Notes under the pieces: generated by a model
The model's input: only the letters and a program-made list of their open reading frames with translations
Databases searched by the model: none
What the model was told of the DNA's origin: nothing
Made by a program: the position numbers and the translations under genes
From: a phage
DNA: 64,000 nt
Direction: 5' to 3' (one strand)
Assembly (NCBI GenBank): GCA_011915565.1
Contig: GCA_011915565.1_3920.1
Part shown: positions 42,568 through 49,554 of the stretch, one piece after another
Numbering within the stretch: the stretch's first letter is position 1
How the letters are laid out: each line of letters begins with the position of its first letter

Positions 42568-43983
42568 ATGAGCGAATTATTTAAACATGCGCACCTTCAT
42601 GCAGGTCGAACTGAAAATGGTGCTGTAAACCATACTTCATCAATGTCTGCTCTTGTAGACTTTTACAAAGCTGCTGGTTCAAGCCGTAGCAATGTAGAAA
42701 TCTTACCAGACCTGTTCTACAAAGCTTTGCGTGAGGATGTTGATGTTGCAGTTCGTATTTTACTGCATATGCGAGATGTACGAGAAGGTATGGGTGAGCG
42801 TAAGGCCTTCAGAACTGTTTTACTTCAAGCGATTGAAGACAAAGTTTTAGAGCCTACGCAGGTTCTTCGCATTATGGATAAGGTTGCAGAACTTGGTCGT
42901 TTTGATGACTTCAAAATCTTCGTAGGTACTCGTTTCGAGACAGATGCCTTCAAGCATTTAGAAGCAGCATTACTAGACCCTGCAACAGCAGGTTTGGCGG
43001 CTAAGTGGTTACCACGAGTCAAACCACGTCATAAGCAGTTTGTAAAACGTTTCTGCAAGTTTGCCAACTTGAGTGAGAAAGAGTACCGCACACTGTTGTC
43101 TGCACTATCTGATACAGTTGAGCAAAAAATCTCTGCTAATGAGTTTGGTAAGATTGATTACAGCAAGATTCCTTCACTTGCTGCTGCACGTTACCAAAAA
43201 CTCTTTAACCGTAAAGATGGGGAACGTTACAAAGCTTACATTGAGTCTTTATCAAAGGGCGAGGCTAAGATTAATGCTGGTGCTGTTTACCCATACGATG
43301 TGATTAAATCTGTTAAGTATGGTAATGCAGATGTTGCTAATGAGCAGTGGAAAGCACTACCAAACTGGATGGCAGAAGGTGAAAACATCCTATGTATGAC
43401 TGATGTTTCAAGCTCAATGTATTGGGTGAATTTTGGTTCAATCACTGCACTTGATATTGGTGTATCACTTGCCTTGTATGTAGCAGAACGCAATACAGGT
43501 TGCTTTAAGGATGAGTTGATGGTTTATTCAACAAACCCTCACTTCATCGAACTGAGTGGTGATTTACGAAACCGTCATCGTCAGGTGATGCGACACGTTG
43601 AATATGGCTCAACCAACTTACAAGCAGCTTTTGACCGCATTCTTGAAACAGGTAAAAGAAACAACTTGACTCAGAAAGATATGCCAAGTAAGCTTATCAT
43701 CTTCTCCGATATGGAGTTTAATCAGGTTGATGGTGCTAATGGTCGTACAAACTTCGAAGCAATTCGAGATAAGTACGAAAAAGCTGGATATGAGATGCCA
43801 CAACTGGTATTCTGGTACTTAGCAAACCGTAATGGTACTTGCGAAGTATCTATTAAGGATAACGGTGTAGCAATGGTATCTGGTTTCTCTCCAGCCACTT
43901 TAAAAGCTTTGCTTGGTGGTGAGAAGTTTGACCCAATCAGCGTAATGCTCAAAGCAGTAATGATTGACCGTTACATCTGGTAA
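42568..43983 (+). CDS. von Willebrand factor A (vWA) domain protein with N-terminal helical domain
   Basis: 471 aa; MIDAS-like DVSSSM at about residue 280; domain order resembles Ro60/TROVE or DUF2828-type proteins (inference). Confidence 0.7.
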   Translation: MSELFKHAHLHAGRTENGAVNHTSSMSALVDFYKAAGSSRSNVEILPDLFYKALREDVDVAVRILLHMRDVREGMGERKAFRTVLLQAIEDKVLEPTQVLRIMDKVAELGRFDDFKIFVGTRFETDAFKHLEAALLDPATAGLAAKWLPRVKPRHKQFVKRFCKFANLSEKEYRTLLSALSDTVEQKISANEFGKIDYSKIPSLAAARYQKLFNRKDGERYKAYIESLSKGEAKINAGAVYPYDVIKSVKYGNADVANEQWKALPNWMAEGENILCMTDVSSSMYWVNFGSITALDIGVSLALYVAERNTGCFKDELMVYSTNPHFIELSGDLRNRHRQVMRHVEYGSTNLQAAFDRILETGKRNNLTQKDMPSKLIIFSDMEFNQVDGANGRTNFEAIRDKYEKAGYEMPQLVFWYLANRNGTCEVSIKDNGVAMVSGFSPATLKALLGGEKFDPISVMLKAVMIDRYIW

Positions 43984-44002
43984 AAAGTTTTAAAAAGGGT
44001 AT

Positions 44003-44031
44003 TGACAATGTGTTTAATACCCTTTAATATG
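44003..44031 (+). promoter_or_regulatory. sigma70-like promoter (TTGACA-17-TAATAT) with overlapping inverted repeat
   Basis: GGGTATT...AATACCC palindrome spans the -35 and spacer; heads the tRNA array. Confidence 0.55.
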
Positions 44032-44148
44032 TTCTACATAGAAACGAGATGAGGGCTTTTCTAAGATACTGAAAAATATTTTAAAAAAGTTCTTGACAAC
44101 CACTAAAAAATAATGTTAAAGTGGTTACATAGAGTTTGAAAAGTTTAT

Positions 44149-44225
44149 CTCTGTTTAGCTCAGCTTGGTAGAGCGTTCCGTTTGGGGCGGTAAGGCCGGA
44201 GGTTCAAGTCCTCCAACAGAGACCA
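44149..44225 (+). tRNA. tRNA-Pro (anticodon TGG)
   Basis: Manual cloverleaf: acceptor CTCTGTT/AACAGAG, GGTTCAAGTCC T-arm, CCA encoded. Confidence 0.7.
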
Positions 44226-44232
44226 AATTAAT

Positions 44233-44310
44233 GTTCCAGTAGACAAAATGGTAAAGTCACCACTCTTTCAAAGTGGATATCTGAGGGTTCAAATCCCTTC
44301 TGGAACGCCA
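44233..44310 (+). tRNA. tRNA-Glu (anticodon TTC)
   Basis: Acceptor GTTCCAG/CTGGAAC; anticodon stem CCACT/AGTGG, loop CTTTCAA; CCA encoded. Confidence 0.7.
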
Positions 44311-44315
44311 GTTTT

Positions 44316-44392
44316 GACAGAAGACCAATTACAGCAAACTTAATCTTATTCATCTGAAGGTAAATCGGACAAAGAAGAGATTTGGTCTGGTC
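44316..44392 (+). other. tRNA-spacer structured element, copy 1 (CAGAAGACC...GGTCTGG)
   Basis: Conserved CAGAAGACCAATTACAGCAA head and TTGGTCTGG tail forming a 7-bp closing stem. Confidence 0.5.
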
Positions 44393-44401
44393 ATTAAGAA
44401 T

Positions 44402-44478
44402 TGCGGGTATAGAGAAAGGGTGTCTCACATGTCTCATTAGCATGGTATCGGCAGGTTCGACTCCTGCACCCGCCTCCA
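44402..44478 (+). tRNA. tRNA-Met (anticodon CAT)
   Basis: D-stem GAGA/TCTC, anticodon loop CTCATTA, T-arm GCAGG-TTCGACT-CCTGC, CCA encoded. Confidence 0.65.
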
Positions 44479-44480
44479 AA

Positions 44481-44550
44481 TTTACAGAAGACCGTTTACA
44501 GCAATACTTATTAAATTTTTAGCGGAAAAATTGAAAGATACGGTCTGGTA
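44481..44550 (+). other. tRNA-spacer structured element, copy 2
   Basis: TTTACAGAAGACCGTTTACAGCAA...ACGGTCTGG. Confidence 0.5.
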
Positions 44551-44561
44551 ATACTAAACAT

Positions 44562-44638
44562 GGTTAGGAAGCACATAAGGTATGTGCGGTCGCCTGTTAA
44601 GCGAATGGCACAGGGTTCGAATCCCTGACTAACCGCCA
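44562..44638 (+). tRNA. tRNA-Asn (anticodon GTT)
   Basis: Acceptor GGTTAGG/ACTAACC; anticodon loop CTGTTAA; T-arm CAGGG-TTCGAAT-CCCTG. Confidence 0.65.
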
Positions 44639-44646
44639 AATTAAAT

Positions 44647-44734
44647 GTGTCGTTATCCCGTAGATGGTAGCGGTGGGGACTGTAAATCCCTTGTCATTGA
44701 GACTCGGTAGGTTCGACTCCTACACGGCACACCA
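44647..44734 (+). tRNA. tRNA-Tyr (anticodon GTA), long variable arm
   Basis: 88 nt; anticodon stem-loop GGGGA-CTGTAAA-TCCCT; type II structure. Confidence 0.65.
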
Positions 44735-44739
44735 ATAAA

Positions 44740-44816
44740 GGCTATGTAGTTTAACTGGAGAAAATACTCCCCTGTCACGGGAGATGATGTGAGTTCAAGT
44801 CTCATCGTAGCCGCCA
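44740..44816 (+). tRNA. tRNA-Asp (anticodon GTC)
   Basis: Acceptor GGCTATG/CGTAGCC; anticodon stem CTCCC/GGGAG, loop CTGTCAC. Confidence 0.7.
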
Positions 44817-44875
44817 ATTTTGAGAGGGCTATTTAGTTCCTCCCTTAAAGAGTTCTTACGAGTATTCTTTAAAGG

Positions 44876-44952
44876 AGCAGAAGACCAAATACAGCAAGAA
44901 TGTATGAAATTTCAAGCCAATTTAATTTTGAAAATTTAAAACTTGGTCTGGC
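44876..44952 (+). other. tRNA-spacer structured element, copy 3
   Basis: GCAGAAGACCAAATACAGCAA...CTTGGTCTGG. Confidence 0.5.
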
Positions 44953-44963
44953 TCAACAAATTT

Positions 44964-45098
44964 ACAGAAGACCGTTTACAGCAAAACTTAAACAATCTAT
45001 TTCTCCGGTAAAGAAAAGGCGAAGGTTCGATTCCTTCACTCGGCAGATGTCGAGTTGGTGTAATGGTAGCACTTAAGATGATAAACAACGGTCTGGTA
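44964..45098 (+). other. tRNA-spacer structured element, copy 4, containing a degenerate tRNA-like segment
   Basis: TTTACAGAAGACCGTTTACAGCAA head; T-arm-like GAAGG-TTCGATT-CCTTC, hairpin ACTCGGCA/TGTCGAGT, D-arm-like TGGTGTAATGGTAGCAC, then ACGGTCTGG. Confidence 0.45.
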
Positions 45099-45239
45099 AT
45101 TATCTTTGTAGATAAGTTATTAAGCTTACCTGTGAGTATGCGACCACAAAGGGTGAAGGGTAAATTCTAGATTTAAACCCAAAAGGCACATCGCTACAGA
45201 CCTTAAGCAAGTCTGGGTAGCTTATCTACAAAGATAATT
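45098..45239 (+). other. perfect 19-bp inverted repeat enclosing 104 nt
   Basis: AATTATCTTTGTAGATAAG at 45098-45116 and its exact reverse complement at 45221-45239; lies between spacer element 4 and tRNA-Lys. Confidence 0.6.
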
Positions 45240-45243
45240 TAAT

Positions 45244-45319
45244 GGAAGTGTAGCAGAATGGTGATGCGGCAGACTTTTAATCTGACAGGCGATGGGTTCG
45301 AATCCCTCCACTTCTACCA
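45244..45319 (+). tRNA. tRNA-Lys (anticodon TTT)
   Basis: Anticodon loop CTTTTAA; T-arm ATGGG-TTCGAAT-CCCTC; paralog of the 46541 tRNA. Confidence 0.6.
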
Positions 45320-45397
45320 AATTCACCCTTAACTGAGAAACACCTGCGCGGCTGGAAACACCCACTCAACAGTTTCTCTAACTAGGGTACTTATTCT

Positions 45398-45474
45398 GGT
45401 TCAGTCGCAGATAAGGTAATGCAAGGGTCTCATAAGCCCTATGAATGTGGGTTCGATTCCCATCTGAACCTCCA
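45398..45474 (+). tRNA. tRNA with CAT anticodon (Met or lysidine-Ile)
   Basis: Acceptor GGTTCAG/CTGAACC; anticodon stem AGGGT/GCCCT, loop CTCATAA. Confidence 0.6.
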
Positions 45475-45475
45475 A

Positions 45476-45551
45476 GCTGGTATAGTTAAGAAGGTTATAA
45501 CACTCCCCTGATAAGGGAACATCGGTGGTTCGATTCCACCTACCAGTACCA
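45476..45551 (+). tRNA. tRNA-Ile (anticodon GAT)
   Basis: Acceptor GCTGGTA/TACCAGT; anticodon loop CTGATAA. Confidence 0.65.
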
Positions 45552-45566
45552 ATTTCAATAAAGTTG

Positions 45567-45595
45567 TTGACATTGAGATGTGACTCCTTTATACT
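45567..45595 (+). promoter_or_regulatory. sigma70-like promoter (TTGACA-17-TATACT)
   Basis: Inside the tRNA array, upstream of a 200-nt hairpin-rich spacer and tRNA-Arg. Confidence 0.55.
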
Positions 45596-45797
45596 AACCT
45601 TAGTTTTCGTTGCGTAGCGTCTATTTTGCAAATTTAAAATAAATGCAAACGACAATGTTTTTCTGGCAGTAGCTTGATAGGCTAAACACCAGTGAGGTCT
45701 TCCAATCCCTCATCAAAGAATTTGGCGTACTCGCCCACGGTATGATTAATAAGGTGGGCATCTTTAAGGGCTTTCTAAGAGAGTCTTTAAAGATAAT

Positions 45798-45874
45798 GCA
45801 CCCTTAGTTCAATTGGATAGAGCAACGGTCTTCTAAATCGTTAGTTACAGGTTCGAATCCTGTAGGGTGTACCA
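45798..45874 (+). tRNA. tRNA-Arg (anticodon TCT)
   Basis: Acceptor GCACCCT/AGGGTGT; D-arm GTTC...GAGC; anticodon loop CTTCTAA. Confidence 0.7.
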
Positions 45875-46016
45875 AATAGTTAGCAGATTACTTAGACGGC
45901 CTTAGCGGGTCTTCCTGTAGGGAGGTGGTCTGTATCTCATGTTTTCCAGAACATGTAAATAATCTGAGAAGAAGCTTGACAGTGTTGAGATAACAGGGTA
46001 AGCTTCGAATTATAAT

Positions 46017-46099
46017 ATGGGACGATGTTAAGACTCTAAGGCATGAGCAACGGCCTCCAAAACCGTTTCAAAGGGGTTCAACTCCTCCGTCCCATGCCA
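46017..46099 (+). tRNA. tRNA-Trp (anticodon CCA)
   Basis: Acceptor ATGGGAC/GTCCCAT; anticodon loop CTCCAAA; 83 nt with enlarged D region; preceded by TATAAT. Confidence 0.55.
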
Positions 46100-46112
46100 A
46101 AGTCTTATTAGG

Positions 46113-46200
46113 GGTAGGTAGCGGCTAATGGCAGCCAAACAGTCTTGAAAACTGTTGCCACTGTAGAGATACGGTGAGGGTTCGACTCCTTTACTTACCG
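46113..46200 (+). tRNA. tRNA-Ser (anticodon TGA), long variable arm
   Basis: Anticodon stem ACAGT/ACTGT, loop CTTGAAA; type II; no CCA encoded. Confidence 0.6.
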
Positions 46201-46376
46201 CCTAATAAGATTTACTCCGTCCATGCTTGTTCGCATTGTCGGTTTATCCCTCGTGTATTGTCGTACACTGTCAAAGCACCTAGTAGGTGTCACGGAGAAG
46301 AGATAATATCAAGCTCTCCAAAGGTTCTAGTCACCGGATTAAACAAGACTATGCAAAGACCTATTTAGGTCTTTTT
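46201..46376 (+). ncRNA. candidate structured non-coding RNA ending in an intrinsic terminator
   Basis: No ORF; long-range complementarity (ACTCCGTCC ... GTCACGGAGAAG); ends with AGACC-TATTT-AGGTCT plus TTTTT at 46355-46376. Confidence 0.4.
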
Positions 46377-46456
46377 AGAGGGCTTCTAAGGTTATTAGTC
46401 GCTTGTTGTGGAACCTTGTTGCTCAGGTTCTTAGAAGTTCTCTAAAAAGATTTAAT

Positions 46457-46533
46457 GCACCTATAGCCCAACTGGTAGAGGCAGCAGACTTAGAATCTGC
46501 TCAGTGTGAGTTCGAATCTCTCTAGGTGTACCA
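46457..46533 (+). tRNA. tRNA with TAG anticodon (Leu by anticodon; short variable arm)
   Basis: Acceptor GCACCTA/TAGGTGT; anticodon stem GCAGA/TCTGC, loop CTTAGAA; 77 nt, type I. Confidence 0.55.
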
Positions 46534-46540
46534 AATTAAT

Positions 46541-46616
46541 GCAGGTGTAGCAAAATGGTTATGCGGCTGACTCTTAATCAGTAAGACGATGGGTTCAATT
46601 CCCTCCACCTGTACCA
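46541..46616 (+). tRNA. tRNA-Lys (anticodon CTT)
   Basis: Paralog of the 45244 tRNA; anticodon loop CTCTTAA. Confidence 0.55.
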
Positions 46617-46622
46617 AACAAT

Positions 46623-46698
46623 GGGGTCATAGTTTATATGGTTAAAATTCGAGTTTTGCAAACTTGGGAACCGAGTTCAATTCTCGGTGACTCCACCA
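46623..46698 (+). tRNA. tRNA-Ala (anticodon TGC)
   Basis: Clean 76-nt cloverleaf: GGGGTCA acceptor, GTTT/AAAT D-stem, loop TTTGCAA, T-arm CCGAG-TTCAATT-CTCGG. Confidence 0.7.
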
Positions 46699-46704
46699 AT
46701 TAGT

Positions 46705-46779
46705 GCATCCATAGTTTAAACGGGAAAATTACAGTCTTCCAAACTGAGGTTGAGGGTTCGATTCCCTCTGGATGCTCCA
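46705..46779 (+). tRNA. tRNA-Gly (anticodon TCC)
   Basis: Acceptor GCATCCA/TGGATGC; anticodon loop CTTCCAA. Confidence 0.65.
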
Positions 46780-46786
46780 AATTAAT

Positions 46787-46862
46787 GCTCCTATCGTATA
46801 ATTGGTTATTACGGTTGCCTTGTAAGCAACTTATCAGGGTTCGAGTCCTTGTGGGAGCACCA
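46787..46862 (+). tRNA. tRNA-Thr (anticodon TGT)
   Basis: Anticodon stem GTTGC/GCAAC perfect, loop CTTGTAA; T-arm CAGGG-TTCGAGT-CCTTG. Confidence 0.7.
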
Positions 46863-46892
46863 ATTCAGAGGTCAAGTGAAAGACCGCTTTGA

Positions 46893-46950
46893 GTCAACTG
46901 AAGACCGTAACAAATTCCACGGAGTTGAGTTAGCGGCACAACTCCAGACC
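46893..46950 (+). other. tRNA-spacer structured element, diverged copy 5
   Basis: CTGAAGACCGTAACAAATTCC related to the CAGAAGACC head; enclosed by AGAGGTC/GACCTCT inverted repeat. Confidence 0.4.
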
Positions 46951-46958
46951 TCTTTCAT

Positions 46959-47033
46959 ACTCGCTTAGTTTATATGGTAAAACATCACCCTTACAAGATG
47001 AAGAAAAAGGTTCAAGTCCTTTAGTGAGTACCA
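46959..47033 (+). tRNA. tRNA-Val (anticodon TAC)
   Basis: D-stem GTTT/AAAC; anticodon loop CTTACAA; T-arm AAAGG-TTCAAGT-CCTTT. Confidence 0.65.
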
Positions 47034-47034
47034 T

Positions 47035-47112
47035 GTTCCAGTATCCCAATTGGCAGAGGATGCAAGCTCAAACCTTGTATTAGTGACGGTTCGAATCCGT
47101 CTTGGAACACCA
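47035..47112 (+). tRNA. tRNA with CAA anticodon (Leu by anticodon; short variable arm)
   Basis: Acceptor GTTCCAG/TTGGAAC; anticodon stem GCAAG/CTTGT, loop CTCAAAC; T-arm GACGG-TTCGAAT-CCGTC. Confidence 0.55.
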
Positions 47113-47117
47113 ATTTT

Positions 47118-47193
47118 GCAGGATTAGTTCAAATGGAAAGAGCAACAGTCTACGAAGCTGTTAATAGGGGTTCGAATCCCTTATCCTGCGCCA
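47118..47193 (+). tRNA. tRNA-Arg (anticodon ACG)
   Basis: Clean 76-nt cloverleaf; anticodon stem ACAGT/GCTGT, loop CTACGAA. Confidence 0.7.
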
Positions 47194-47210
47194 GATAAAA
47201 AGGTGATACT

Positions 47211-47453
47211 ATGCAAACATTAACAGTAGTTGAACATGAAAACTGTGAGAGTATTGAGTTTGTCAGGGTCATTGGTGTTGAACACCACATTTTCTTAAAA
47301 GTTGGATACTTATGTGACCCCGCTAGAGTAGAAAGATTTATACGTGATTGTTTTGGTGGTAGACATCTGAAGAGTGTTATTTTTGAGACAGTTTTACCAG
47401 AAGGTTTAGAAACGAATAATAACATTTACCTCCTTACGAGGATTAGACAATGA
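47211..47453 (+). CDS. hypothetical protein embedded in tRNA array
   Basis: 80 aa; AAGGTGA RBS 6 nt upstream; directly follows tRNA-Arg. Confidence 0.5.
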   Translation: MQTLTVVEHENCESIEFVRVIGVEHHIFLKVGYLCDPARVERFIRDCFGGRHLKSVIFETVLPEGLETNNNIYLLTRIRQ

Positions 47454-48007
47454 GATACTTAAAGTATGCTTCATGGATTTTCTTAGCTTTGTTAGAGCCA
47501 TTTGCAGCAATCTTAGCAGTTATCTTAGCACCTTTTGTAGTTCCATTCTACAGTGAGAAGAAAGGACACTTACCTTTCGGGTTCAGATGGATGGAGACTT
47601 ATGACAACCCAATTGATGGTGATGCAGGTCATATCAAACGATGGGCTAAGATTAGAAAGATTGGTAAGCTTGGTGTCTACATGCAGAGAGTTGGATGGCT
47701 CTGGAGAAACAAAGCTTATAACTTCTCTTACCATGTGTTAGGAAGAGATGTAAAAGACGTTACTAAGTGGAAAGGTAATATCAACGTAAGTTCTAACCCT
47801 GAAGATAATCAGACAGGTTATCTCCTAATGTGGAACAGTAATGCTTGGGGATTATTCGCTTTTATCCCATCAATTAAAATCTTTGGTAAACAATTCTACT
47901 GGAGAATTTATGTTGGATGGAAACTTAAAAGTGTTGTCCCAGAAGAAAGAGCATTCTCAAGGGAAAGAGTTATGTTGGCATTCTTTATTCATCCACTAAG
48001 AAAGTAA
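47450..48007 (+). CDS. membrane protein embedded in tRNA array
   Basis: 185 aa; N-terminal TM segment WIFLALLEPFAAILAVILAPFVVPF; start overlaps upstream stop (ATGA). Confidence 0.6.
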   Translation: MRYLKYASWIFLALLEPFAAILAVILAPFVVPFYSEKKGHLPFGFRWMETYDNPIDGDAGHIKRWAKIRKIGKLGVYMQRVGWLWRNKAYNFSYHVLGRDVKDVTKWKGNINVSSNPEDNQTGYLLMWNSNAWGLFAFIPSIKIFGKQFYWRIYVGWKLKSVVPEERAFSRERVMLAFFIHPLRK

Positions 48008-48015
48008 AGATTTAA

Positions 48016-48091
48016 AGGGGATTAGTTTACAAGGTTAAAACCTCGGTCTTTGAAATCGAAGAAGTTGGTTCAATTCCAACATCCCCCGCCA
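48016..48091 (+). tRNA. tRNA-Gln (anticodon TTG)
   Basis: Anticodon loop CTTTGAA; T-arm GTTGG-TTCAATT-CCAAC; unpaired 1:72 and G73. Confidence 0.65.
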
Positions 48092-48093
48092 AT

Positions 48094-48172
48094 GCTCCAT
48101 TACTCCAATTGGCAGAGAGGCCAGACTTAAAATCTGTGTTATGTATCGGTTCGAATCCGATATGGAGTACCA
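48094..48172 (+). tRNA. tRNA with TAA anticodon (Leu by anticodon; short variable arm)
   Basis: Acceptor GCTCCAT/ATGGAGT; anticodon loop CTTAAAA; D-loop AATTGGCAGA shared with the 47035 tRNA. Confidence 0.5.
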
Positions 48173-48177
48173 AATTT

Positions 48178-48253
48178 AGCGGTATAGCATAACTGGCAAT
48201 GCAGCAGCCTCTGAAGCTGTCCTATTAAGGTTCAAATCCTTATGCCGCTGCCA
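48178..48253 (+). tRNA. tRNA-Gln (anticodon CTG)
   Basis: Acceptor AGCGGTA/TGCCGCT; anticodon stem GCAGC/GCTGT, loop CTCTGAA; G73. Confidence 0.6.
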
Positions 48254-48284
48254 CTTCTAAGGATTCTTACGAGAGTCCTTAAAT

Positions 48285-48360
48285 GTGGCCTTATCATAAA
48301 TGGTAATGACCCATGCTGTGAACATGGTCTATACGGGTTCAAATCCCGTAGGTCACCCCA
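48285..48360 (+). tRNA. tRNA-His (anticodon GTG)
   Basis: Anticodon stem CCATG/CATGG perfect, loop CTGTGAA; discriminator C. Confidence 0.7.
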
Positions 48361-48366
48361 ATTTAT

Positions 48367-48442
48367 AGTCCAAGTAGCTTATATGGTTAAAGCGCGTGTC
48401 TGAAAAACATGAGAAGAGGGTTCAAATCCCACTGGACTACCA
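48367..48442 (+). tRNA. tRNA-Phe (anticodon GAA)
   Basis: Anticodon stem CGTGT/ACATG, loop CTGAAAA; T-loop TTCAAAT; CCA encoded. Confidence 0.6.
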
Positions 48443-48458
48443 ATTTCAAAGGTGCTTA

Positions 48459-49193
48459 ATGAAAGAGATGACAGAACAAGGTAAGGAGATTTTCAATCTC
48501 TTAAAAACCGGTAAAGGGTTTTCTAACCCCCTTATTACTGGTGCAGCAGTTCTCGGTGGAACCGTAGCTGCCTCTACATCACTTGTAAGCTCTATTAGCT
48601 CTGTATCAGACCCTACAGTAAAGGATAAGCTTGTTGCTGCTGGACTTACAACAGTTCTGCTTAACAGCTTTACCACGAGTCTGACAAGCACTACATCAAC
48701 TACCAAAACACTAACAGATTACGGTCAAAAGTCCATTGATGAGTTTTCATCACGTATGCAGGTAGCAAAAGGTTACTCTAATGTTATGGGTGCAGCAGGT
48801 GAACAAGTTGGCTGTACACCATTTAGTGGTATTATGGGTGTTGCTACAGAGTATGGTCAAAAAGCTATTGATACGATTAACAGTGCACTAGATAGTGTTA
48901 ATGGTGTGTTAAGTGACTTACAAGATGCTATTGACAAAGGTCTTGATACTATTTCTGATTTAGCTGAGCAAGCTGTTAGTAAGATTAATGAAGGTATTTC
49001 AAAAATTACAGCTTATGCAGATGAAGTTGTGCAGATGATTGAAGAAGAAGCTGCTCTTATTGCAGAGTACCTTAAAACGAATATCAATGGGTTCTTAGCA
49101 GGTATCTTACCAGACTGGTTTGATGATGCTTGTAAAACTGGTGTAATTGACACTATTGCAACACCAGAAATGAAGAACGCATTACAGAAATAA
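48459..49193 (+). CDS. hypothetical protein (Ser/Thr-rich N-terminus, helical C-terminus)
   Basis: Track ORF starts at 48396 inside tRNA-Phe; first ATG after the tRNA (48459) with AAAGGTG RBS chosen. Confidence 0.55.
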   Translation: MKEMTEQGKEIFNLLKTGKGFSNPLITGAAVLGGTVAASTSLVSSISSVSDPTVKDKLVAAGLTTVLLNSFTTSLTSTTSTTKTLTDYGQKSIDEFSSRMQVAKGYSNVMGAAGEQVGCTPFSGIMGVATEYGQKAIDTINSALDSVNGVLSDLQDAIDKGLDTISDLAEQAVSKINEGISKITAYADEVVQMIEEEAALIAEYLKTNINGFLAGILPDWFDDACKTGVIDTIATPEMKNALQK

Positions 49194-49195
49194 AT

Positions 49196-49288
49196 GGAAG
49201 ATTAACCCTAAAAGGTAAGGGAGCAGTTTGCTAAACTGCCAGTAGCTGAGAAATCGGTGTACCAGTTCAAGTCTGGTATCTTCCTCCA
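49196..49288 (+). tRNA. tRNA-Ser (anticodon GCT), long variable arm
   Basis: Acceptor GGAAGAT/ATCTTCC; anticodon stem GCAGT/ACTGC, loop TTGCTAA; T-arm TACCAG-TTCAAGT-CTGGTA. Confidence 0.65.
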
Positions 49289-49292
49289 ATTT

Positions 49293-49368
49293 GAATCCGT
49301 GACAGAAACGGCTATGTGCCTGTCTGCAAAACAGGTTTATAAGGGTTCGAGTCCCTTCGGATTCTCCA
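49293..49368 (+). tRNA. tRNA-Cys (anticodon GCA)
   Basis: Acceptor GAATCCG/CGGATTC; anticodon stem CCTGT/ACAGG, loop CTGCAAA. Confidence 0.7.
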
Positions 49369-49530: not shown

Positions 49531-49554
49531 GACGGTCTCTGTGCCGTCTTTTTT
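49531..49554 (+). terminator. intrinsic terminator
   Basis: GACGG-TCTCTGTG-CCGTC then TTTTTT. Confidence 0.7.

Follow-up and report, generated by a model that had tools for sequence, protein, structure and literature searches.

Leucine tRNAs with short variable regions in the tRNA array of a Felixounavirus phage

Bacterial tRNA-Leu normally has a long variable arm. The tRNA array of the phage DNA analyzed here (GenBank assembly GCA_011915565.1, contig GCA_011915565.1_3920.1; "the window" is the whole stretch of 64,000 nucleotides, nt) contains three tRNA genes with leucine anticodons and short variable regions, and the question is what these tRNAs are. A preliminary description had considered unusual compact Leu tRNAs, an aminoacylation identity different from what the anticodon implies (recoding or decoys), or an anticodon loop read off by one. 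With a probability of roughly 85%, we consider them to be three genuine and functional Leu isoacceptors with a bacterial tRNA-Leu body and a variable loop of 5-7 nt, which the host leucyl-tRNA synthetase (LeuRS) would charge and the ribosome would use. The window belongs to a Felixounavirus; identity of the region is 99.5% with Escherichia phage vB_EcoM-Pr103Blw and ∼99% with phage wV8. Matches were found in 315 phage records, practically all from Felix O1-like phages that infect Escherichia, Salmonella, Shigella, and Citrobacter. The GenBank records of the matching phages already annotate three tRNA-Leu genes, and their architecture is unrecorded. The three genes in the window are the following (the gathering score of the Rfam tRNA model RF00005 is 29):

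46457..46533, + strand: tRNA-Leu(UAG), 77 nt including the encoded CCA (ARAGORN; Rfam RF00005, 57.3 bits)
47035..47112, + strand: tRNA-Leu(CAA), 78 nt including the encoded CCA (ARAGORN; Rfam RF00005, 44.0 bits)
48094..48172, + strand: tRNA-Leu(UAA), 79 nt including the encoded CCA (ARAGORN; Rfam RF00005, 47.5 bits)

A pairing-scored segmentation divided them into these segments:

Leu(UAG): GCACCUA UA GCC CAACUGGUAGA GGC A GCAGA CUUAGAA UCUGC UCAGU GUGAG UUCGAAU CUCUC UAGGUGU A CCA
Leu(CAA): GUUCCAG UA UCC CAAUUGGCAGA GGA U GCAAG CUCAAAC CUUGU AUUAGU GACGG UUCGAAU CCGUC UUGGAAC A CCA
Leu(UAA): GCUCCAU UA CUC CAAUUGGCAGA GAG G CCAGA CUUAAAA UCUGU GUUAUGU AUCGG UUCGAAU CCGAU AUGGAGU A CCA

All three are built on a common plan: a 7-bp acceptor stem, U8 and A9, a 3-bp D-stem with an 11-nt D-loop (C-AAYUGGYAGA), 5-bp anticodon and T-stems, the T-loop UUCGAAU, and A73. 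The acceptor, D, anticodon, and T-stems have 7/3/5/4 pairs in Leu(UAG), 7/3/5/5 in Leu(CAA), and 7/3/4/5 in Leu(UAA), the last with a single mismatch, C-U, in the uppermost position of its anticodon stem; position 1-72 is G1-U72 in Leu(UAG) and Leu(UAA) and G1-C72 in Leu(CAA). The variable regions are UCAGU (5 nt, UAG), AUUAGU (6 nt, CAA), and GUUAUGU (7 nt, UAA). They are unpaired and too short for an arm, and a variable arm of the long class II type, with its stem, is absent from all three. Signs of a pseudo-tRNA were not found: 19-20 of the 20 stem pairs are formed, and U8, A14, G18G19, U33, the T-loop, and CCA are all present. The Rfam alignment marks pair 13-22 as non-standard in all three. 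The anticodon loops CUUAGAA, CUCAAAC, and CUUAAAA have 7 nt each, with U33 and a purine at position 37.

What the preliminary description had reported about these genes was borne out in full. ARAGORN returned the same coordinates for the TAG, CAA, and TAA genes and the same lengths of 77-79 nt, and the segmentation yielded variable regions of 5, 6, and 7 nt where 5-7 nt had been given, with A73 in each tRNA. Its worry about the loop register fell away, since ARAGORN and the RF00005 alignments, independently of each other, place the anticodons identically; an off-by-one register is thus excluded. The long arms that it had noted in the Tyr and Ser tRNAs of the same array were also found, and these three genes serve as internal comparators:

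44647..44734, + strand: tRNA-Tyr(GUA), 88 nt, long variable arm (ARAGORN, sequence)
46113..46202, + strand: tRNA-Ser(UGA), 90 nt, long variable arm (ARAGORN; Rfam, 31.1 bits)
49196..49288, + strand: tRNA-Ser(GCU), 93 nt, long variable arm (ARAGORN; Rfam, 46.2 bits)

Two of the anticodon loops carry further peculiarities. The loop of Leu-UAG (46489-46495) is CUUAGAA, with A37 in place of the G37 of host leuW (UUUAGGU), which makes 1-methylguanosine at position 37 (m1G37) impossible; A37 is likewise found in the Leu-UAG of phage T5 and in most viral short-arm Leu-UAG. In the Leu-CAA loop (47067-47073), C38 of CUCAAAC interrupts the motif A36A37A38, which is also relevant to MiaA recognition. The same motif has been described for TrmL recognition (PMC9976931).

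Judged from their sequences, the three are true Leu-lineage tRNAs with a compact variable region. The five Leu isoacceptor types of E. coli K-12 are 85-87 nt long and have U8, a 3-bp D-stem, an 11-nt D-loop [G/A]AAUYGGUAGA, U48, and A73, with a variable arm of 13-15 nt that ends in U48 and with G1-U72 in leuZ and leuU. In the window tRNAs U8, A14, A15, U48, A73, and the D-arm stand in the same register as in these five types. The nucleotides of U8-A14 and A15-U48 are present in all three, where they would form the tertiary pairs, and in all three G18G19 and A20a sit in a D-loop of 11 nt that is closed by a 3-bp D-stem. Across the viral loci sampled (see below), the Leu D-loop motif occurred in 155 of 220 Leu tRNAs and in 22 of 1119 tRNAs of other isotypes. 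We also built a covariance model (R1) from 55 long-arm Leu tRNAs only, namely the five E. coli types, the T5 Leu tRNA, and 49 bystanders from viral contigs, and scored the whole array of 26 tRNAs with filters off; R1 is a home-made model and not one of the tRNAscan-SE isotype models. This isotype scoring, which the preliminary description had proposed, placed the three window tRNAs at ranks 1-3 of 26 despite the penalty for the deleted arm: Leu(UAG) 61.2 bits, Leu(UAA) 55.9, and Leu(CAA) 54.2, followed by Glu at 47.6, with Tyr at 34.5 and the two Ser tRNAs at 28.1 and 27.4. With these top ranks, an origin from a tRNA of another isotype through a changed anticodon is ruled out. A recent deletion derivative of host Leu genes was also considered and is unlikely, as identity of the tRNA body to E. 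coli Leu is 38-62%, whereas other short-arm Leu tRNAs reach as much as 79%. The identity analysis is too weak to separate common descent of the short-arm family from convergence, and we make no claim on this point.

Indirect support for charging with leucine comes solely from what the cognate codons mean. The phage NrdA, NrdB, and NrdD proteins, identified by Pfam, were aligned to their E. coli counterparts (overall identity 25-35%). Leu was the residue opposite TTA in 41%, TTG in 37%, and CTA in 46% of cases, and one of L/I/V/M/F stood opposite these codons in 74-84%; CTG and CTT behaved in the same way. No recoding signal was found at UUA, UUG, or CUA in these three alignments. The phage (39% GC) spells Leu as TTA (24.5%), TTG (16%), CTT (27.5%), CTA (9.5%), CTG (18.5%), and CTC (4%). 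CUG dominates Leu codon use in E. coli, and in a small sample (E. coli nrdAB) CTG made up 80% of the Leu codons. Set against this host bias, the codon use of the phage indicates that the anticodons UAG, CAA, and UAA cover the phage demand; the Leu tRNA absent from the phage set is CAG, the major one of the host.

The short form is shared by the relatives of this phage. Among the matching phage records, 216 of 264 have Leu-UAA with at least 99% identity and 160 of 292 have Leu-CAA at that level; the surrounding 2.5 kb has 90-95% identity in most records. Compared with Felix O1, Leu-UAA and Leu-CAA are 100% identical and the non-tRNA sequence of the array 95.6%. The window allele of Leu-UAG occurs in only ∼93 records. 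In Felix O1 (locus L344, 3070-3147) and FG1m (locus L008, 4421-4498) the Leu-UAG slot, which lies upstream of Lys-CUU, holds an unrelated allele that is 57-62% identical and also short (78 nt, variable loop UGUUU). The Thr, Ile, and Arg-UCU slots are replaced too (79-81% identity), next to adjacent tRNAs that are 100% identical; it looks as if single tRNA genes are swapped like cassettes within Felixounavirus. In the sister genus Kolesnikvirus (Erwinia phage phiEa104 and Cronobacter phage phi63_307), the Leu tRNAs CAA, AAG, and UAA are 77-78 nt long and have the same D-arm, A73, and U48, and their differences in the acceptor, anticodon, and T-stems are fully compensated. Long-arm Leu tRNAs at the orthologous positions of related phages, which the preliminary description had named among the findings that would refute it, did not turn up: three members of Felixounavirus and two records of Kolesnikvirus (both Ounavirinae) were checked, and their Leu tRNAs are short throughout. 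Those of Felix O1, FG1m, and the two Kolesnikvirus phages have A73 and U48 in every case, and their stems show compensatory changes. Because every examined member has it, the short form appears to be old in the Ounavirinae.

Some rearranged or oddly labeled copies were seen among these relatives. FG1m (locus L008, 4999-5076; window 47035-48172) has a chimeric Leu tRNA, in which the 5' part of Leu-CAA, through the 5' strand of the T-stem, is joined to the 3' part of Leu-UAA with the junction inside the shared GGTTCGAATCCG T-loop; Arg-ACG, two open reading frames (ORFs), and Gln-UUG are deleted, and 6 of 7 acceptor pairs and 4 of 5 T-stem pairs are kept. The short-arm Leu-UAA orthologue of phiEa104 (locus L345, 5778-5854) is annotated by tRNAscan-SE as "tRNA-Undet," and the same gene in phi63_307 was called Leu(taa) by another pipeline. 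Short-arm Leu genes may be under- or mis-annotated.

BLAST searches with single window tRNAs found annotated tRNA-Leu at 74-85% identity in the phages AhP_Mru1 and LpeD, and further such matches in Mycobacterium, Streptomyces, Gordonia, Pseudomonas, and Enterococcus phages. Aeromonas phage AhP_Mru1 (T5 family) and Lactobacillus phage LpeD (a herellevirus) have three short Leu tRNAs each; AhP_Mru1 (locus L007, 796-875) also encodes a tRNA with anticodon UCA, which its record gives as a suppressor tRNA and ARAGORN as selenocysteine (SeC). A pattern scan of IMG/VR that combined the D-loop of Leu tRNAs with an anticodon loop of Leu type and a T-loop at short distance matched at least 120 loci, and the figures given for viruses in this paragraph and for cellular genomes in the next are among the matches listed. 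On the 120 viral loci ARAGORN called 220 Leu tRNAs, 169 of them below 82 nt and 51 long, and in the same loci Ser was long in 92 of 94 cases and Tyr in 36 of 40. Long- and short-arm Leu tRNAs occurred together in 32 loci. When the pattern was left open to either arm length, 29 of 120 loci had the short form and 91 did not; the latter include host tRNA genes at provirus ends, so that the share of the short form within this D-loop type is about a quarter at the least. In 108 well-formed and distinct viral short Leu tRNAs, A73 and U48 were each found in 108 of 108, compared with 44% (A73) and 31% (U48) in the bystander tRNAs of the sampled loci; 81 of them had a variable loop of 5 nt and just one a loop of 4 nt, and G1-U72 was present in 43. 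An alignment of 96 sequences, pre-filtered for good stems, showed strong covariation for a cloverleaf with a 3-bp D-stem and a short variable loop: 99.1% of the cells were paired and 20 of 20 pairs varied on both sides, with a covariation score of 1.07 vs. 0.25 for shuffled sequences and at most 0.20 with the partners slid. The compact form is thus common in phage tRNA arrays generally.

The same pattern scan over 185,579 species genomes also matched at least 120 loci. Of these, 117 matches were tRNAs, nearly all called Leu and 73-78 nt long, and 83 of the 120 loci hold one tRNA only, which marks them as ordinary chromosomal genes rather than phage arrays. At least 57 of 80 listed loci are from Actinomycetota (Nocardia, Rhodococcus, Gordonia, Mycobacterium, Corynebacterium, Arthrobacter, and Bifidobacterium). 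The solitary actinomycetotal short-arm tRNA-Leu genes are mostly UAA or CAA and 74-77 nt long (loci L222-L341; for example L222 Gordonia, L227 Nocardia, L229 Mycobacterium, L234 Corynebacterium, and L242 Bifidobacterium), and solitary genes were also seen in some assemblies of Planctomycetota, Bacteroidota, Cyanobacteriota, and Acidobacteriota. The core subtype with U8A9, C13, and the AAUUGGCAGA D-loop was found in 107 of 145 short-arm Leu tRNAs on bacterial contigs, 23 of 108 viral ones, and all three in the window; Nocardia, Rhodococcus, Mycobacterium, and Corynebacterium genes combine this U8A9/C13/AAUUGGCAGA core with an NCAGU-type loop. Actinomycetota short-arm Leu tRNAs are up to 79% identical to the window Leu(UAG), and the window tRNAs have the marks of this Streptomyces/Actinomycetota kind, namely an unpaired loop of ∼5 nt, a Leu anticodon, and a canonical cloverleaf.

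How could such tRNAs be charged in an enterobacterial host? Seryl-tRNA synthetase (SerRS) and the bacterial tyrosyl-tRNA synthetase (TyrRS) bind the long arm, and what bacterial LeuRS recognizes is A73 and the corner formed by the D- and T-loops; the arm could be lost in Leu and not in Ser or Tyr because only LeuRS works without it. We propose that the three Leu tRNAs would be transcribed within the 26-gene array and then processed, and that the host (E. coli/Salmonella) LeuRS would charge them with leucine by reading A73, U8-A14, A15-U48, and the placement of G18G19/A20a in the D-loop, and neither the anticodon nor the variable arm. The charged tRNAs would decode UUA, UUG, and CUN, which make up most of the Leu codons of the phage and are minor-tRNA codons in the host. 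According to the passages of PMC9976931 that cite Larkin 2002, the identity set of E. coli LeuRS (EcLeuRS) consists of A73, A15-U48, G18G19, and A20a, the long arm and the anticodon are not needed, and arm-less E. coli tRNA-Leu variants remain active. The long arm is described as a structural hallmark and not as an EcLeuRS identity element (PMC9976931), and A14 is listed among the identity elements (PMC6614811). The shortest variable loop with good leucylation was reported to be 5 nt (PMC6614811), which matches the minimum observed.

Several points weigh against this proposal. In vitro, EcLeuRS failed to leucylate the tRNA-Leu(CAA) of Streptomyces coelicolor, which is the one bacterial short-arm tRNA-Leu studied and is accepted by the S. 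coelicolor enzyme ScoLeuRS, and the authors concluded that EcLeuRS charges long-arm tRNA-Leu only (PMC6614811). The C-terminal domain of EcLeuRS contacts arm nucleotides 47f-47i in the crystal structure (PMC6614811), and given these contacts its affinity for the phage short-arm tRNAs could be lower. With A37 in Leu-UAG and C38 in Leu-CAA, modification and decoding may differ from those of the host loops. The statistics on the wider family come from a pattern-selected sample, and the pre-filtering of the 96-sequence alignment inflates the percentage of paired cells, though not the compensatory changes. As for the in vitro failure, the S. coelicolor tRNA has C48 and so lacks the A15-U48 element needed by E. 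coli LeuRS, whereas the window tRNAs have U48; owing to C48, that failure may not be transferable to the phage tRNAs.

Among the other explanations, an artefact, that is, a mis-registered anticodon loop or pseudo-tRNAs, deserves practically no credence: we found no point in its support, two predictors agree on the register, all four stems pair, and the genes are near-invariant over hundreds of phage genomes. It is also very improbable that the tRNAs are charged with another amino acid, with UUR/CUN recoded, or that they arose from a short-arm tRNA of another isotype whose anticodon mutated. The atypical length alone would suggest it, together with the "Undet" call for the phiEa104 orthologue. 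Against it, the codons stand opposite Leu in conserved proteins, D-arm and core are of a Leu-specific kind, and the three head the ranking by the model made from Leu tRNAs alone. Both G3-U70 and a long arm are lacking, and these anticodons do not suit the synthetases that read anticodons (rules as given in PMC9976931). The identity other than Leu envisaged in the preliminary description, by recoding or as decoys, thus found no support, since the codons act as Leu and no determinant for another synthetase is visible. Its suggestion of unusual compact Leu tRNAs fits the Leu-type D-arm and core, the three top Leu-model scores, the short form in all relatives checked, and the strong covariation in unrelated viral contigs. 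Somewhat less remote, and still improbable, is the idea that host LeuRS charges these tRNAs poorly or not at all and that they serve, for instance, as decoys drawing off host factors that target tRNAs, or as RNAs with a regulatory or primer-like role. The inactivity of EcLeuRS on the S. coelicolor tRNA in vitro (PMC6614811) would agree with this, as would the lack of a native short-arm Leu tRNA in E. coli, judged from the K-12 isoacceptors only. The features needed for translation, however, are kept and conserved (encoded CCA, 7-nt loop, U33, purine 37, canonical T-loop, and full stems), the three anticodons jointly cover the preferred Leu codons of the phage, and the tRNAs carry the complete E. 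coli Leu identity set, with the U48 that is missing from the S. coelicolor tRNA. The invariance of A73 and U48 in all 108 viral relatives among the matches listed also points to selection by LeuRS.

A different kind of alternative accepts that the tRNAs are Leu-charged and used, and holds that loss of the arm was adaptive and not merely tolerated. We regard it as unlikely, though clearly less so than the readings above. In one version, Leu tRNAs without the long arm would not be confused with tRNA-Ser or tRNA-Tyr by any host SerRS or TyrRS, and an identity made of A73 and the core would be portable between hosts; in another, they would escape a host factor, such as a nuclease or a modification enzyme, that recognizes long-arm tRNAs. 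The short form is frequent and recurrent across phages of very different hosts (Ounavirinae, Aeromonas T5-like, Lactobacillus herellevirus, Mycobacterium, Streptomyces, Pseudomonas, and Enterococcus), and about a quarter of the type-agnostic viral loci listed (29/120) hold it. The core comes in several subtypes (U8G9 or U8A9; position 13 G, A, or C), which suggests more than one origin, and both unrelated Felixounavirus alleles of Leu-UAG are short. The A37 and C38 loops differ from those of the host, in line with the idea of evasion by loop changes (PMC10264068); that eLife paper on anticodon-loop changes in phage tRNAs does not mention variable arms. On the other side, T5 retains a long-arm Leu(UAG), and 32 viral loci among the matches listed mix the two forms. 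Many Actinomycetota carry the short form on the chromosome, so that a phage-specific pressure is unnecessary, and neutral loss under deletion bias fits the Leu-only pattern equally well. We know of no nuclease specific for long-arm tRNAs in these hosts, and no search for one was made, which also counts against adaptive loss.

The array and its flanks contain these further features:

44149..49368, + strand: tRNA array of 26 genes with interspersed small ORFs (ARAGORN, Rfam)
44002-44030 and 44093-44122: promoter-like sites (pattern matches only)
49531-49548: terminator-like site (pattern match only)

The synteny of the array is common to the window, Felix O1, FG1m, and the Kolesnikvirus phages. 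Promoter-like sites in the array are not more frequent than in shuffled sequence, and we draw no conclusion on transcription units. The first tRNA-Met called by ARAGORN (44402-44478) and the tRNA-Tyr (44647-44734) fall below the Rfam gathering score, and the Felix O1 record marks its Tyr and His tRNA genes as pseudogenes. The Ser-UGA gene (46113-46202) has no encoded CCA, unlike nearly all other tRNAs of the array. Directly upstream of the array lies an ORF of 471 aa (42568-43983, + strand) with the Pfam domains DUF2828 and DUF7788. A search for PDB sequence matches to it returned none, and no link to the tRNAs was found; the FG1m record names its counterpart "RNA-binding protein."

Since the genes had been annotated before and short-arm tRNA-Leu is already known from animal mitochondria and Streptomyces, the window tRNAs do not amount to a new mechanism. 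The data do not point to recoding. A review states that tRNA-Leu is always long-armed outside animal mitochondria (PMC9976931), and the S. coelicolor exception was presented as special (PMC6614811); in a full-text literature search, no paper turned up that treats short-arm tRNA-Leu of phages. What seems unreported is that the compact form is the norm in an enterobacterial phage subfamily, common in phage arrays, and widespread in Actinomycetota. All three points run against the "always long arm" statement of the review (PMC9976931), and the Actinomycetota genes extend the single studied precedent, the S. coelicolor tRNA-Leu(CAA) (PMC6614811). For E. coli and Salmonella phages this raises the question of whether an E. 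coli-type LeuRS can charge a short-arm tRNA-Leu that occurs in nature, and which of the nucleotides U48, A15, A9, and C13 in the core decide it. If the loss was adaptive, Leu identity would be freed from host-specific class II discrimination, so that the tRNA would be functional in any host, or the tRNA would be invisible to a host factor recognizing long-arm tRNAs, or both; a short-arm tRNA-Leu of a coliphage would then be charged efficiently by the E. coli LeuRS that was reported as long-arm-only. For annotation practice, isotype models may flag short-arm Leu genes as odd. The finding is also relevant to the design of compact or orthogonal tRNAs and to the question of why phages carry tRNAs.

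Among known systems, the E. coli long-arm tRNA-Leu genes (leuQPV, leuZ, leuX, leuW, and leuU) share with the window tRNAs the D-arm, U8, U48, A73, a canonical T-loop, and the anticodons UAG, CAA, and UAA, and some of these isoacceptors have G1-U72 as in the window Leu(UAG) and Leu(UAA). They differ by an arm of 13-15 nt with a stem instead of 5-7 unpaired nt, by G9 and G/A13 instead of A9 and C13, and by G37 in Leu(UAG) and A38 in Leu(CAA) instead of A37 and C38; outside the variable region and the anticodon, identity is 38-62%. The tRNA-Leu(UAG) of phage T5 is likewise phage-encoded, part of a large array, from an E. coli phage, and has A37 in its loop (CUUAGAU), but it is 85 nt long with a 13-nt variable arm; its relative AhP_Mru1, of the T5 family, has three 77-nt short-arm Leu tRNAs instead of the long-arm one. 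The arm-deleted "minimalist" E. coli tRNA-Leu constructs, as treated in the cited parts of PMC9976931, resemble the phage tRNAs in having a Leu core, A73, the D/T-loop contacts, and no arm, and they are leucylated by E. coli LeuRS; these constructs were made in the laboratory, some without an anticodon arm, whereas the phage tRNAs are natural, complete, and conserved. Animal mitochondrial tRNA-Leu also has a short variable region and an identity conferred by A73 and A14 (PMC9976931), with degenerate D- and T-loops and a dedicated LeuRS, whereas the loops of the phage tRNAs are fully canonical. The S. coelicolor tRNA-Leu(CAA) and the Actinomycetota genes, with a 5-nt variable loop, exist beside long-arm Leu tRNAs in a bacterial cytoplasm, as the phage tRNAs would. 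The S. coelicolor tRNA differs by C48 and by its own LeuRS, which makes no use of A73 (PMC6614811) and co-evolved with a short-arm tRNA, whereas E. coli, on the basis of the K-12 isoacceptors, has no native short-arm Leu; the window genes, in turn, lie in a phage array and comprise three isoacceptors.

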